A stretch of 64,000 nt of DNA, taken from an uncultured Gemmataceae bacterium. GTDB taxonomy: Bacteria > Planctomycetota > Planctomycetia > Gemmatales > Gemmataceae. The notes beneath the pieces were generated by a model. That model did no database searches. It saw only the letters and a list, made by a program, of their open reading frames with translations, and had not been told where the DNA came from. The stretch lies in assembly GCA_963750165.1 (NCBI GenBank), contig CAVVPN010000010.1, positions 64,001-128,000 of the forward strand, written 5' to 3'. Below are positions 24,450-28,928 of the stretch, one piece after another. The translations under genes and the position numbers were made by a program. The first letter of the stretch is position 1. Every line of letters begins with the position of its first letter.

Positions 24450-24563
24450 ATGTCGAGCGAACCCACGGTACTCGAGCGCAACCGGGAACTGGCCATGCGC
24501 ATCAACGCGGAAGCACGGCGGGATCCGCAATCGCCGTCAATCGGAGTCAAGAGAGAGGAGTAG
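24450..24563 (+). pseudogene. Possible 5-prime gene fragment (37 aa) abutting the tRNA array
   Basis: GGAG SD + MSSEPTVLERNRELAMRINAEARRDPQSP.., stop overlaps the last tRNA. Confidence 0.35.
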
Positions 24564-24633
24564 TCCCAGGTGGACTCGAACCACCGATCTTCCCCAGGTC
24601 AAGGGGCTGTCCTGGCCGCTGAACGATGGGACT
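24561..24633 (-). tRNA. tRNA-Val(GAC)
   Basis: Acceptor AGTCCCA/TGGGACT, anticodon loop TTGACCT, T arm GGTGG-TTCGAGT-CCACC; no CCA. Confidence 0.75.
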
Positions 24634-24643
24634 CTGTTTTCAG

Positions 24644-24716
24644 TACCCCGACCAGGAGTTGAACCCGGAACGCCTCGTTCGAAGCGAGGTATGATGATCC
24701 GTTTCACCATCGGGGC
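24644..24716 (-). tRNA. tRNA-Arg(TCG)
   Basis: GCCCCGA/TCGGGGT, CCTCG-CTTCGAA-CGAGG, T loop TTCAACT. Confidence 0.85.
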
Positions 24717-24721
24717 AAGAG

Positions 24722-24807
24722 CGGAAGGCAAGGGATTTGAACCCTCATACCCTGACGGGCGCACTGTTTAGCAAACAGGCCCGGCGAACCGTATCCGGCT
24801 ACCCTCC
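24722..24807 (-). tRNA. tRNA-Ser(GCT)
   Basis: GGAGGGT/GCCTTCC, loop TTGCTAA, long variable arm, G73. Confidence 0.85.
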
Positions 24808-24817
24808 GTTAGCGCAG

Positions 24818-24889
24818 TGGACCCACCGGGAATTGAACCCGGATTTTCAGTCTGCCGAACTGATGTCCTCCCGGTTGGACGATGAGCCC
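24818..24889 (-). tRNA. tRNA-Ala(GGC), C33
   Basis: G3:U70 pair, TCAGT-TCGGCAG-ACTGA. Confidence 0.8.
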
Positions 24890-24900
24890 ATTGATTGCAG

Positions 24901-24974
24901 TGGAGACGATGGGAATCGAACCCATCCCAGGTTGCTTGCAAGGCATCCTCGCCGCCCTTGGCACATGCGCCCCC
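24901..24974 (-). tRNA. tRNA-Ala(TGC)
   Basis: GGGGGCG/CGTCTCC with G3:U70, loop CTTGCAA; atypical D arm. Confidence 0.75.
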
Positions 24975-24985
24975 ACAAATGGCAG

Positions 24986-25057
24986 TGATCCCGGATGGAC
25001 TCGAACCATCGTTGCCTGGACGTGGCCCAGGAGTCGTGGCCGCTGGACCACGGGATC
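24986..25057 (-). tRNA. tRNA-Val(CAC), G32/C33
   Basis: GATCCCG/CGGGATC, CCTGG-GCCACGT-CCAGG, TTCGAGT. Confidence 0.7.
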
Positions 25058-25071
25058 ATCACAGCAGTCAG

Positions 25072-25150
25072 TGACCGAGGTGGGATTTGAACCCACAAAC
25101 AGATCACCAGGCTCTCGACCTGGTCGCTTTGCCAGTTTGCGTACTCGGCC
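25072..25150 (-). tRNA. tRNA-Leu(GAG), C33, short variable region
   Basis: GGCCGAG/CTCGGTC, CCAGG-TCGAGAG-CCTGG, 10-nt variable region. Confidence 0.75.
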
Positions 25151-25158
25151 GTCAGCAG

Positions 25159-25227
25159 TCGCGGGTCCGGGAGTCGCGCCCGGAGAGCTGGGATTATGAG
25201 CCCCGGCTGGAAACTCTTCCACCCGCC
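25159..25227 (-). tRNA. Degenerate tRNA-Met(CAT), initiator-like
   Basis: Loop CTCATAA closed by GGG/CCC, 1:72 mismatch, shrunken D arm, T loop CGCGACT. Confidence 0.55.
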
Positions 25228-25229
25228 AG

Positions 25230-25314
25230 TGACCAGGGGGAGACTTGAACTCCCACGCCTGTGATGAGGCACGGCCTTCTGAGGACCGCGTGTCTGCCAT
25301 TCCACCACCTGGCC
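25230..25314 (-). tRNA. tRNA-Leu(CAG)
   Basis: GGCCAGG/CCTGGTC, loop CTCAGAA, normal long variable arm. Confidence 0.9.
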
Positions 25315-25327
25315 ATGAACCAATCAG

Positions 25328-25400
25328 TAGCCCGTGCGGGAATCGAACCCGCGTCCTCAGCTTGAGGGGCTGAGATCCTGTGCCGTTAGAAGAACGGGCC
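25328..25400 (-). tRNA. tRNA-Glu(CTC), C33
   Basis: GGCCCGT/ACGGGCT, TCAGC-CCCTCAA-GCTGA, TTCGATT. Confidence 0.8.
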
Positions 25401-25404
25401 GCAG

Positions 25405-25484
25405 TGTGTCGGGCAGGAGTCGAACCTGCAAGGCTAACGCGGACGGGTTACAGCCGTCTGGGCCTGCCAGTGCCCAACCAACAC
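25405..25484 (-). tRNA. tRNA-Tyr(GTA)
   Basis: GTGTTGG/CCGACAC, GACGG-CTGTAAC-CCGTC, 12-nt variable region. Confidence 0.8.
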
Positions 25485-25494
25485 AGCACTTCAG

Positions 25495-25572
25495 TAGCGC
25501 GGGCGAGGGTCGAACTCGCAGTCGATCACCAAGGTTTGAGCTTGGCCGCTTTGCCAGTTTGCGTACCGCGCC
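25495..25572 (-). tRNA. tRNA-Leu(CAA), short variable region
   Basis: GGCGCGG/CCGCGCT, CCAAG-CTCAAAC-CTTGG, 9-nt variable region. Confidence 0.8.
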
Positions 25573-25577
25573 GTCAG

Positions 25578-25650
25578 CGCCCCGACGGGATTTGAACCCG
25601 CGATCTCCACCTTGACAGAGTGGCGAGGACTCCAGCTCCTCTACAGGGAC
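25578..25650 (-). tRNA. tRNA-Asp(GTC)
   Basis: CCACT-CTGTCAA-GGTGG, G73; acceptor 3-prime strand one base short (possible indel). Confidence 0.75.
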
Positions 25651-25659
25651 GTATCTCAG

Positions 25660-25733
25660 TAGCGCCGGTGGGAGTCGAACCCACAGCAGTTCTGGTTCTA
25701 AGCCAGAATGGTCGTCCGGTTGCCTACAGCGCC
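25660..25733 (-). tRNA. tRNA-Leu(TAG), no variable arm
   Basis: GGCGCTG/CGGCGCT, TCTGG-CTTAGAA-CCAGA, 74 nt. Confidence 0.75.
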
Positions 25734-25748
25734 GTTCGATCACCGAAG

Positions 25749-25822
25749 TGCGCGGGGTGGGAGTCGAACCCACAATCACCTGGGTTTAAGCCAGGCCGCT
25801 CTGCCGATTGGCGTACCCGGGC
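25749..25822 (-). tRNA. tRNA-Leu(TAA), no variable arm
   Basis: CCTGG-CTTAAAC-CCAGG, 5-nt variable loop TGATT, TTCGACT. Confidence 0.8.
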
Positions 25823-25829
25823 AAAACAG

Positions 25830-25901
25830 TTCGGGGAGAAGGGGTCGAACCTTCGTTGCCAGATTCAGAGTCTGGCGGCCTACCAGTTAGCCGATCCCCG
25901 A
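25830..25901 (-). tRNA. tRNA-Gln(CTG)
   Basis: TCGGGGA/TCCCCGA (U1:A72), CCAGA-CTCTGAA-TCTGG. Confidence 0.85.
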
Positions 25902-25920
25902 ATCTATGTCTCCGCTTCAG

Positions 25921-25993
25921 TAGGGCCGGTGGGACTCGAACCCACGTCTCATCGCTTAAAAGGCGAGCGCTCTGACCGCTGAGCTACGACCCC
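25921..25993 (-). tRNA. tRNA-Lys(TTT)
   Basis: GGGGTCG-TAGCTCAGCGGTCAGAGC, loop CTTTTAA, TTCGAGT. Confidence 0.9.
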
Positions 25994-26035
25994 ATGTGGG
26001 ATGCGTAGCCGACGTTTACCAGGTGCTTGTCGCAT
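25949..26035 (-). CDS. Putative 28-aa mini-ORF overlapping tRNA-Lys
   Basis: AGGAG SD 8 nt before ATG; MRQAPGKRRLRIPHGVVAQRSERSPFKR*. Confidence 0.35.
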   Translation of the reverse strand: MRQAPGKRRLRIPHGVVAQRSERSPFKR

Positions 26036-26054
26036 GACCGCTGCTCCTGTCGAG

Positions 26055-26125
26055 TAGTCCGGGGTGGAGTTGCACCACCACTGACGACGTATCAGATCGC
26101 CGTGCTCCTGTTACACCACCAGACT
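26055..26125 (-). tRNA. tRNA-Ile(GAT), atypical T loop
   Basis: AGTCTGG/CCGGACT, GCGAT-CTGATAC-GTCGT, T loop TGCAACT. Confidence 0.7.
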
Positions 26126-26144: not shown

Positions 26145-26180
26145 AACGAAAAAGGCCGGGTGTTTCGTGACACCCGGCCT
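26145..26180 (-). terminator. Intrinsic terminator (attenuator) upstream of the tRNA array
   Basis: 11-bp stem AGGCCGGGTGT/ACACCCGGCCT, 6-nt loop, TTTTCGTT tail, 20 nt before the first tRNA. Confidence 0.8.
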
Positions 26181-26209
26181 GAAGCGTTCTCTTCAGTGCG
26201 TTCGCGGGG

Positions 26210-26311
26210 TCACAAGTTGAGACGATCAAGAGCCAGCAGTTTGCGCTGATAGGCCGCGACGGCCTGCAACGCCTGCTGTTCAAGCACCAGACTGATCACG
26301 GAATAACGCAT
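26210..26311 (-). CDS. Putative attenuator leader peptide (33 aa)
   Basis: MRYSVISLVLEQQALQAVAAYQRKLLALDRLNL*; stop codon lies in the antiterminator strand; SD weak. Confidence 0.6.
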   Translation of the reverse strand: MRYSVISLVLEQQALQAVAAYQRKLLALDRLNL

Positions 26312-26493: not shown

Positions 26494-27747
26494 TCAGGAC
26501 AACCGATACCTGGGTTGTTGCTCCAGATACCGCCGCACCCGCTCCGTGCGCGTCACCGCCTCCTTCAGGAAGCCAACCGCCAGCCGCAGCCGCTCGTCCG
26601 GCTCGGCGCAGCTGAAGCGCAGGAAACCCTGTCCCGCCGCTCCGAAGCACTCGCCGCCCAGGCACGCCACGCCGAAGCGCTCGTCCGCCGCCTCCAGCAG
26701 GAACATCGCCAGGCCGTGCGACGTGATGCCCTGCCGCCGGCAGATCGCGGACACGTCCGGGAACACGTAAAACGTCCCCGCCGGCATCAACACCTGGACT
26801 TCCGGCACCAGGCGCAGTTCCGCGACCAGCAACTGCACCTTCTTGTGGAAGCGCCGCATCACCTCGTCGCGCTCGGCGGCGTCGTACTGGAGGGCGGCCT
26901 GGCCGGCCAGCTGCACGATCGGCGGCACGCACGACAGGCTCGTGTTAATCATCTTGCCGATGGTCTCGATCAGCCGCGGACTGCTGACCGCGTAGCCGAG
27001 TCGCCAACCGCTCATGCTGTACGACTTGCTGAAGGTATACGCCGCCACCACCTGGTCGAGCATGTCCGGATGCTCCAGCAGCGTGTGGTGCCGGCCCTGC
27101 CAGACCATGTGGCAGTACGGTTCATCGCTGAACACCGCCACGTCCTGGCCGCGCACCAGATCGGCGATGCCACGCAGGTCCTCCGCCGTGGCGACGCCGC
27201 CGGTCGGGTTGTGCGGCGAGTTCAAAAAGATCGCCTTTGGCCGGGCTGCCGTCTTCAGGAAGTCGGCCACGGCGTTCAGGTCCGGGCGGAACTGGTGCGC
27301 CTGCTTCAGTGCCGCGAACACCGGCCGGGCACCGCGGCGCTCGATGTTCGGCACGAACGTCGGGAACTGCGGGCTGAACACCAGCACGCTGTCGCCAGCG
27401 TCCAGCACCGCCTCGCAGAAGAACTGCTCGAACACCTTGGCGCCAGCGCCCACCACGACGTTGGCCGCCGTGATCGGCACGCCGAACTCCTTGCCGTAGT
27501 TCTCCGCAATGGTCTCGCGGAAGCCCGGTAGGCCCAGCGAGGCGCAGTAGTGCGTCTCGCCGGTGTCGATGGCCTGACGGCCGGCTTCGCGGGCGTGTTT
27601 GGTGCTGGGAAAGGGGCTGTCGCCGATCTGCAACTCGACCACATCCTTGCCCTGGGCCTTGAGCCGGCGGGCGACCGCCAGCACGTCGAAGGCGGTCTCG
27701 GCCGAAAGTTCCCGGGCGAAACGACTCAGGCTCACGGGGGTGGTCAT
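26494..27747 (-). CDS. PLP-dependent aminotransferase class I/II
   Basis: NSPHNPTGG, SDEPY, TFSKSYSMSGWRLGY, GTFYVF. Confidence 0.92.
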   Translation of the reverse strand: MTTPVSLSRFARELSAETAFDVLAVARRLKAQGKDVVELQIGDSPFPSTKHAREAGRQAIDTGETHYCASLGLPGFRETIAENYGKEFGVPITAANVVVGAGAKVFEQFFCEAVLDAGDSVLVFSPQFPTFVPNIERRGARPVFAALKQAHQFRPDLNAVADFLKTAARPKAIFLNSPHNPTGGVATAEDLRGIADLVRGQDVAVFSDEPYCHMVWQGRHHTLLEHPDMLDQVVAAYTFSKSYSMSGWRLGYAVSSPRLIETIGKMINTSLSCVPPIVQLAGQAALQYDAAERDEVMRRFHKKVQLLVAELRLVPEVQVLMPAGTFYVFPDVSAICRRQGITSHGLAMFLLEAADERFGVACLGGECFGAAGQGFLRFSCAEPDERLRLAVGFLKEAVTRTERVRRYLEQQPRYRLS

Positions 27748-27836: not shown

Positions 27837-28583
27837 TTACTGTTTCGCGGCGATGGTCTGCGCCAGCGGCCGCACCACCGCACTGATGATGTGGTTGTCC
27901 ACCAACTCCTGGCACAGCTGCCGCTGATGACGGTACGAATCCACGAAGGTCTTGAACGGCTGCCGGCCCCAGTATTGCCGCACCGTGAAATACACGCTGA
28001 TCGGCGCCTCCGGGAACTGGCCCGTTCGTATCTGGTAAGCGTTCGTGCGCGTCTCGATGCTCAGCCGGCACTGTAGCCGACAGGTGTCGTCCAGCGCCAG
28101 CATCAGTGACGGCTCGTAATTAATGACGCGGGTGCCCTGCAACTGGACCAGGTTCTCCAGCGTGGTGTTGACGCCCAGGGCCTCGGCGACCACCTCATCG
28201 TGGTTGCCGCTGAAGGCGAAGTCGAAGGCGAACAGCACGTCCAGCGCCTCGCAGTCCAGCGGGCTCAGGTCCAGGTGGTACGGAGCCAGTTCCAGCACCC
28301 GTTCGTGCTGCGTGTCGGCGGCTTCCAGGTTGGGCGGATTGACGTAGCCCGAACAAATGCGCCGCTGCTCCAGCGTCACCCAGCGGTAACTGCCCTGCTC
28401 GCGCTCCTCCTCCAAAACGTATTCGCCGTTGTCACGGCAGTCGAAGTCGGTCATTTGCGGAAAGGTTTTTTGCAGGCTATCGAAGAAGTGGAGCACCGTC
28501 TCGCGGCGGGAGGGGAGTTCCATTTTGGTGTTGGTGTAAACGTACACCCCGAAGTCGTCACACAGGGATGTGTAGGGGTTCAT
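27837..28583 (-). CDS. Conserved hypothetical protein
   Basis: Protein-like composition and codon bias, MNPYTSLCDDF start. Confidence 0.75.
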   Translation of the reverse strand: MNPYTSLCDDFGVYVYTNTKMELPSRRETVLHFFDSLQKTFPQMTDFDCRDNGEYVLEEEREQGSYRWVTLEQRRICSGYVNPPNLEAADTQHERVLELAPYHLDLSPLDCEALDVLFAFDFAFSGNHDEVVAEALGVNTTLENLVQLQGTRVINYEPSLMLALDDTCRLQCRLSIETRTNAYQIRTGQFPEAPISVYFTVRQYWGRQPFKTFVDSYRHQRQLCQELVDNHIISAVVRPLAQTIAAKQ

Positions 28584-28928
28584 TTGCATTTCCTCAGCGT
28601 CCGGGAAGATAAGACACCGACGCCCGTATTCCTCGCCAAACTCTTCTCATTGTTGGGTAATGGCGCCCCATTTGCAAGACCCACAGGCCCTTTTCCTTGC
28701 CGCCGCCGCAGCCGCCACCGCACACAACTGACACGGTGATCGTATTCCCACCGGGTAGCGGACAATGGACGCACGTTCATCATCTAAAAACGTAACCTTT
28801 TTGTGTGAATCGAGGTGCGTGTATGGGAAAAGACATGGGAGTGGCTGCCTCGGAGCCTTGCGGCGCGTTGCGGGCGGGGCAAGGCCCCGAGGTGCGTGCG
28901 ACAGGTCTGGCGCGAGAAGAGCGGAAAC

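Follow-up and report, generated by a model that had tools for sequence, protein, structure and literature searches.

A codon-matched leader open reading frame and a putative transcription attenuator ahead of tRNA arrays in planctomycetes

The stretch of DNA analyzed here (the window, 64,000 nucleotides of a contig from an uncultured Gemmataceae bacterium) carries on its minus strand an array of 18 tRNA genes for 12 amino acids (24560..26125), which was assembled from ARAGORN, a relaxed search and BLAST. The array comprises the genes for Ile-GAT, Lys-TTT, Gln-CTG, Leu-TAA, Leu-TAG, Asp-GTC, Leu-CAA, Tyr-GTA and Glu-CTC, followed by those for Leu-CAG, Met/Ile2-CAT, Leu-GAG, Val-CAC, Ala-TGC, Ala-GGC, Ser-GCT, Arg-TCG and Val-GAC, packed at 18 genes per 1.57 kb. 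Strict ARAGORN found 16 of these tRNAs. The tRNA-Ser(GCT) (24721..24807, minus strand) was obtained at relaxed stringency only, and a degenerate tRNA with a CAT anticodon (Met or Ile2; 25157..25228, minus strand, limits approximate), which was missed by ARAGORN and Rfam, was recognized by BLAST through a match of positions 25162-25225 to tRNAs of homologous arrays. Upstream of the array, also on the minus strand, lie genes for a class I/II aminotransferase (26497-27747) and for a 250-residue protein without a Pfam match (27840-28589), which are, as far as seen, not regular neighbours of such arrays.

The tRNA-Lys(UUU) gene of the array (25920..25993, minus strand) is the only one detected in this genome, which is 93% complete, and Leu-TAA and Val-GAC were likewise found only in the array by strict ARAGORN. 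A pattern for Lys-UUU had its sole match inside a leader-gated array in seven of 16 genomes (the genome of the window and G464, G019, G488, G518, G554 and G619), two of them single contigs, a count that is limited by the pattern, which can miss genes (no match in one genome), and by incomplete assemblies. As the sole Lys-UUU gene can thus lie inside a gated array, some basal readthrough, and with it some basal expression, of these arrays is likely. In the genome of the window, 27 of the 30 array anticodons also occur outside the arrays. Missing CCA ends do not discriminate array tRNAs (28 of 30) from the other tRNAs of this genome (56 of 67).

A leader ORF of 33 codons (26210..26311, minus strand) is situated downstream of a conserved promoter motif and upstream of an intrinsic terminator which heads the array. 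The motif, GAAC-N16/17-CGTC, occurs twice on the minus strand, as site P1 (26439..26468), which ranks fourth in the genome, and as site P2 (26367..26396), which is closest to the leader and has a score of 19.8; the underlying position weight matrix was built from 217 homologous sites. The motif is promoter-like and would be of the ECF-sigma type. A scan for the sigma-70 consensus yielded no promoter. The terminator (26148..26180, minus strand) consists of an 11-bp stem followed by a U tract (fold of -22.5 kcal/mol, z -5.7); one prediction places it at 26180-26153.

All 12 amino acids served by the array and a single Asn had been noted in the leader, and a recount placed 31 of the 32 residues after the initial Met within this set. 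The original ORF, its translation and the 27 of 33 codons readable by array anticodons under standard wobble were reproduced identically, including the six codons that are missed (CGT, TCC, GAA, CGC, CGT and AAC). In long ORFs of the same genome, real helices included, only 104 of 119,425 windows of 32 residues (0.09%) have at most one residue outside the set, and none of 101 other leaders reaches 31/32 when scored against the array of the window (best value 0.93). The predicted sensing zone covers leader codons 2-29 on the minus strand, and all 28 of them are served by the array; the sole Asn is codon 32 and lies beyond this zone. Leu codons occupy positions 8, 10, 15, 25, 26, 28, 31 and 33, the last two of which fall into the conserved, non-informative C-terminus. 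The idea that these eight Leu codons answer to the five Leu tRNAs had to be given up, as Leu frequency across loci did not follow the number of Leu tRNA copies (rho 0.08, p 0.62, n 46). A reading of CGY codons by Arg-UCG through superwobble, also proposed at the outset, is weakly favoured by the CGY counts (14/22 versus 42/109, p 0.027). In agreement with the weak Shine-Dalgarno (SD) sequence noted initially, the ATG of this leader is not preceded by an SD core; among homologous leaders such a core is present in 31 of 102, versus six of 102 at a control position.

A covariance model derived from an alignment of 72 homologues gave three strong sites in the genome of the window. The second leader, MLTARTNLMQPHSWHKPTSMAPCRCNLRL, heads an array for Lys, Pro, Ser, Cys, Met and His, and the third, MFGNQNQPLMNPERW (G000:C4:499380-499662), heads a pair of Asn-GTT and Gln-TTG genes and contains three Asn and two CAA-Gln among its 15 codons. 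Leaving out the first Met and the last four codons, the leader of the window scores 28 of 28 against its own array and between 3 and 5 of 28 against the other arrays. The second leader scores 12 of 24 for its own six amino acids, 18 of 24 if a split-off Trp-Thr-Arg block is included, and 12 of 24 for the twelve amino acids of the window's array, and the third scores 5 of 10 for its own array versus 4 and 2 for the others. The caveat that an amphipathic helix would also avoid Gly and Pro does not hold, because the sister leaders of this genome contain many Pro, His, Cys, Thr and Trp residues exactly where their own arrays hold the respective tRNAs. The second array and the leaderless Trp-Thr-Arg block are separated by 24 kb (G000:C11:2246175-2271064), with a resolvase gene at one end of the interval and an 11-base core common to the sites after the His gene and within the Trp gene, which suggests that an element inserted into the second array and split the block off. 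The third locus has a replication-initiator gene upstream and a sigma-factor gene downstream. An Arg-Gly-Ser-Gly block (G000:C3:2578659-2579056) possesses the promoter motif without a leader or terminator. A weak match of the model at C3:3165975 was discarded as the end of an ordinary gene with no promoter.

Beyond this genome, the model matched 92 of 150 genomes of the family at E 0.01, a threshold at which weak matches include ordinary terminators, and 44 of 151 genomes of a class sample at 1e-5. In a phylum sample of 151 genomes, seven of the nine genomes from two families of the same class were matched, with two marginal matches elsewhere. A pattern scan of a 401-genome phylum sample matched one genome of another class, with no tRNA behind the match, and among the listed matches of a scan yielding 80 named loci, those with a tRNA array past the hairpin are named after planctomycetes (Pirellulales, Planctomycetaceae, Schlesneria). 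In one Taibaiella locus an ordinary gene is followed by two Glu tRNAs, and in viral contigs two pattern matches were found, neither with tRNAs. The element thus appears to be spread across the class Planctomycetia, the class name being derived from the names of the records. Many of the homologous arrays have more than 20 tRNA genes, up to 30 or more. Leaderless arrays with the promoter motif also exist, for example in the relatives G013, G029 and G006.

For a comparison of leaders and arrays, 265 leader calls (duplicates included) were available, of which 229 combined the promoter motif with an ORF no longer than 75 codons (median 33 codons). Of these, 118 were followed by at least two tRNAs and by 600 bases past the last tRNA, and after removal of leaders more than 60% alike 102 leader/array pairs from 84 genomes or contigs were retained. 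Frame and start were called from the hairpin, the stop codon and the promoter, and the content of the array was not used; the ATG count by frame (98, 11 and 17 of 102) is partly circular and was left unused. The peptide sequence is not conserved among the leaders, although a C-terminal PLRL is common to many of them. Closely related leader pairs differ about equally at the three codon positions (64/67/76, no third-position bias) and in 38 synonymous versus 125 non-synonymous codons, so that neither purifying selection on the peptide nor the usual coding signature is seen in these pairs. Such a pattern is compatible with a leader but is no proof of coding.

The test named beforehand, that the composition of homologous leaders should track the content of their arrays, turned out positive across the 102 loci, within genomes and at the level of synonymous codons. 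The fraction of residues served by the own array is 0.661, compared to 0.510 +/- 0.009 for permuted arrays (none of 20,000 permutations reached it). The match persists with the genome of the window removed (z 16.3) and when each of the 47 clusters contributes a single locus (200 draws, z no lower than 10.1, kin still being partly dependent). The controls were null for the +1 and +2 frames, for two of the antisense frames and for the 5′ UTR; one antisense frame gave a z of 3.0, which may stem from common codon positions 1-2. Within genomes, the true pairing was better in 16 of 17 cases, the single genome against the trend being G525, while the control frames achieved this in 11, 8 and 7 of 17. 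For 18 of the 20 amino acids the frequency in the leader is individually enriched when the own tRNA is present, two- to three-fold for most; over the 102 pairs Arg and Val showed no such enrichment. Of seven amino acids for which residue frequency was compared with tRNA copy number, only Ser was correlated (rho 0.53).

The match is not uniform. A leader composed of Ser, Arg, His and Cys ahead of an S,S,R,H,R,C array reaches 0.86, and the leaders of long arrays are mixed in composition. Several leaders of the long-array type stand ahead of short arrays and match them poorly in absolute terms (L370, L031 and L347 with 0.15 each, L102 with 0.26, L430 with 0.05), and likeness to the long-array type is negatively correlated with matching (rho -0.42, n=75). 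Among the 75 small arrays, four show no excess and only 37 an excess above 0.15. We take the poor match of the long-array-type leaders to reflect a delay following array loss; it may also be that some of these arrays run past the fetched stretch.

Codon choice follows the arrays as well. Altogether 1514 of 1956 codons are readable by the own array, compared to 1377 +/- 16 in a block permutation (0/5000). Leaders of arrays with only Gln-UUG contain 37 CAA and 15 CAG codons, and those of arrays with only Gln-CUG contain 8 CAA and 23 CAG. The signal is also positional: the two final codons show no excess (0.451 versus 0.443). A ribosome stalled there would mask the antiterminator, and the lone Asn of the window leader is located there. 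Codons 3-4 from the stop show a partial excess, and the peak lies 5-12 codons before the stop (0.63-0.65 versus 0.41). This profile fits the footprint model outlined below.

The stop codon of the leader and its flanking bases pair with the 5′ arm of the terminator. This antiterminator strand (26205..26215, minus strand; fold of -25 kcal/mol, z -4.5) and the 3′ arm of the terminator are alternative partners of one switch segment (26165..26176, minus strand). In an alignment of 72 homologues, eight of the 12 terminator pairs are compensatory and 79% of the antiterminator cells are paired. One antiterminator pair at a position left free by the search pattern alternates between A-U (36) and G-C (15); the conservation of the TGAC box and of the spacing from stop to hairpin is partly built in, since both were used in the search pattern, the model and the caller. 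In the variant loci L012/L464 and L177, with a TAA stop and a terminator without a U tract, the antiterminator pairing is preserved through different letters. A long stem enclosing the ORF was discarded as a conserved feature, as the own partner was best in only one of 102 loci. Rfam covariance models, including T-box and other leaders, gave no match upstream of the first tRNA at E values up to 1.

Whether a ribosome on the leader could control this switch was modelled with an assumed footprint limit of 12 nt and a transcript ending just past the 5′ arm of the terminator. For the window, the antiterminator is predicted to form with the A site at codon 29 or earlier, or without any ribosome, and not to form at codons 30-34. 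Among the homologues it is predicted to form in 81 of 83 loci with the ribosome five codons back and in 62 of 83 without a ribosome. In folds of the full transcript at equilibrium the terminator wins in every case, so the switch has to be kinetic. No conserved protector hairpin was found in the leaders, and absence of translation is consequently predicted to induce.

The promoter motif may link the arrays to RNA repair. In the genome of the window it stands directly before archease-rtcB, where it ranks fifth, and in four of five other genomes it is the best site upstream of rtcB, being weak in the fifth. In one genome (G596) rtcB itself lies about 2.5 kb behind a leader. Sigma-factor genes beside three arrays did not point to a cognate sigma factor, as they do not form one close family (28% identity, one marginal match). 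Further occurrences of the motif in the genome of the window precede a pair of DUF6847-like and R2K ATP-grasp genes, an HNH gene, a metallophosphoesterase gene, infC and a housekeeping tRNA-Val; lower-ranked matches may be due to chance. Among the neighbours of homologous arrays (88 of 143 candidate ORFs scanned), eight of 88 are SPFH/Band 7 genes and three of 88 HNH genes. At two loci (L419 and L449) promoter and leader are followed by protein genes, with no tRNA called near the terminator, and the attenuator may thus gate protein genes too.

The most probable reading of these observations, to which we assign a probability of roughly 0.8, is a multivalent ribosome-mediated transcription attenuator that provides feedback control of the tRNA supply from the array. 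Transcription would start at the GAAC...CGTC promoter, whose motif is common to archease-rtcB, presumably through a cognate sigma factor, and a ribosome would translate a leader that is written in codons read by the array. With plentiful tRNAs the ribosome would reach the last codons in time and mask the antiterminator strand, which lies at the stop codon; the terminator, whose pairing competes with that strand, would then fold and, on the modelled timing, end transcription before the first tRNA. If a matched tRNA were scarce, cleaved or uncharged, or if translation were blocked, the ribosome would remain at least five codons back, the antiterminator would capture the 5′ arm of the terminator and the array would be transcribed. 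The new tRNAs would presumably speed up decoding of the leader and close the switch. Where arrays split or shrink, the comparison of loci suggests that the leader is gradually rewritten to match.

It appears possible, if unlikely, that the leader is instead a general translation-stress attenuator like PA5471.1, which opens upon any slowdown and in which codon identity matters mainly for shut-off or against futile induction by tRNAs that the array does not supply. The formation of the antiterminator without a ribosome in 62 of 83 modelled loci points in this direction, as an initiation block or antibiotics would then induce, and so do the mixed leaders of long arrays and the induction of the Anabaena array by general translational stress described in the accessible text of PMC8421152. 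Against it stand the surplus of matched residues, which is two- to three-fold for most amino acids, the surplus of matched synonymous codons, and extreme matches such as that of the Ser/Arg/His/Cys leader (0.86). This explanation is largely compatible with the attenuator reading, the difference being one of emphasis.

Sensing of amino-acid starvation in the style of trp, his or ilv, rather than of a loss of tRNA molecules, is quite improbable. An uncharged and a missing tRNA are indistinguishable to the ribosome, and selective charging of isoacceptors biases synonymous codons in classical leaders too, according to the available part of PMC1183508. However, the controlled genes are tRNAs, which do not relieve a shortage of amino acids, codon choice tracks the anticodons of the array, and the gene of the RNA ligase RtcB has the promoter motif in common with the arrays. 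That the ORF codes for a small, functional amphipathic peptide or represents a chance frame within a structured 5′ leader, its match being coincidence or shared ancestry, would suit the stable fold of the region around the window leader (z -3.6), the weak SD sequence and the recurrent PLRL, yet is hardly credible in view of an unconserved peptide sequence, an enclosing stem that is not general (1/102 loci) and a match that is frame-specific and holds within genomes and over 47 clusters.

Four features of a ribosome-mediated attenuator were found, namely a short leader ORF, cognate codons, a U-tract terminator and an exclusive antiterminator (from folding and covariation only, and partly ascertained by the search pattern). 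The planctomycete leader, as proposed, works like the attenuators known from amino-acid operons (trp, his, leu, thr, ilvGMEDA, ilvBN as well as pheA), yet is not one of them. As far as the available part of PMC1183508 describes them, those leaders likewise contain codons cognate to what the operon supplies, with biased synonymous codons and a terminator that competes with an antiterminator. The planctomycete operon, in contrast, supplies tRNAs, and its downstream genes neither make nor charge the sensed amino acid. Its leaders sample up to 12-20 amino acids without codon runs, and its antiterminator begins at the stop codon, with induction predicted by the model when translation is absent. The PA5471.1 leader of armZ from Pseudomonas aeruginosa is also an attenuator with a leader peptide that opens when ribosomes stall, among other causes on defective tRNAs (Gln3 and Phe4 in a cca mutant), but controls a protein gene and efflux, without a matching of leader codons and product in the part of the source available (PMC13041342).

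Among tRNA clusters, the L-arrays represented by the Anabaena trn operon come closest in context. They are long arrays apart from the housekeeping genes, as is the 18-gene array of the window, Planctomycetes are named among the phyla carrying them, and translational stress induces the Anabaena trn operon together with rtcB (PMC8421152, accessible text). For the window's array a link to rtcB may exist through the promoter motif (in this genome and four of five others), and Pfam scans found HNH genes near such arrays. The control differs: in Anabaena it acts through direct repeats located at the promoter and a repressor, TrcR, and the accessible text of PMC8421152 does not contain the words 'leader' or 'attenuat'. 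Since the only Lys-UUU gene found lies within the array in some planctomycetes, these arrays, unlike L-arrays, may not be silent spares. The tRNA array units of Tran et al. are likewise dense polycistronic tRNA clusters, defined by at least 20 genes at two or more per kb, a limit below which the 18 genes of the window fall; 'leader', 'attenuat' and 'terminator' are absent from the available text of that paper (PMC4758250). A literature search, mostly among papers outside subscription journals, found no paper describing codon-matched attenuators on tRNA arrays; supplementary tables of array surveys could hold an annotation. Attenuation itself is of a known kind. The contribution here is a class-wide bacterial leader family with within-genome, frame, codon and position controls, which sits on L-array-like loci and differs from known attenuators in its proposed control of tRNA genes and in sampling many codons.

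The attenuator may further be part of a codon-resolved homeostat of the tRNA pool, an extension which we consider evenly balanced between true and false. Each array would then possess a rewritable read-out of its own isoacceptors, which would report a loss of tRNAs, for example upon attack by anticodon nucleases, alongside repair by RtcB, and which in some lineages would control the only gene for the essential Lys-UUU and thus be active in normal growth too. The design amounts to a ready-made sensor for shortages in decoding and allows the tRNA-damage hypothesis for L-arrays to be tested directly in cultured planctomycetes. The finding bears on two open questions, how bacteria adjust the levels of individual tRNAs to demand and which purpose long tRNA arrays serve. 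The input of the regulator is legible from its sequence and shifts as arrays split, which provides natural experiments, and where a genome has two or three arrays, one can predict which of them responds to the loss of which tRNA. If the homeostat is real, a planctomycete with several arrays would tune each subset of its tRNAs separately.
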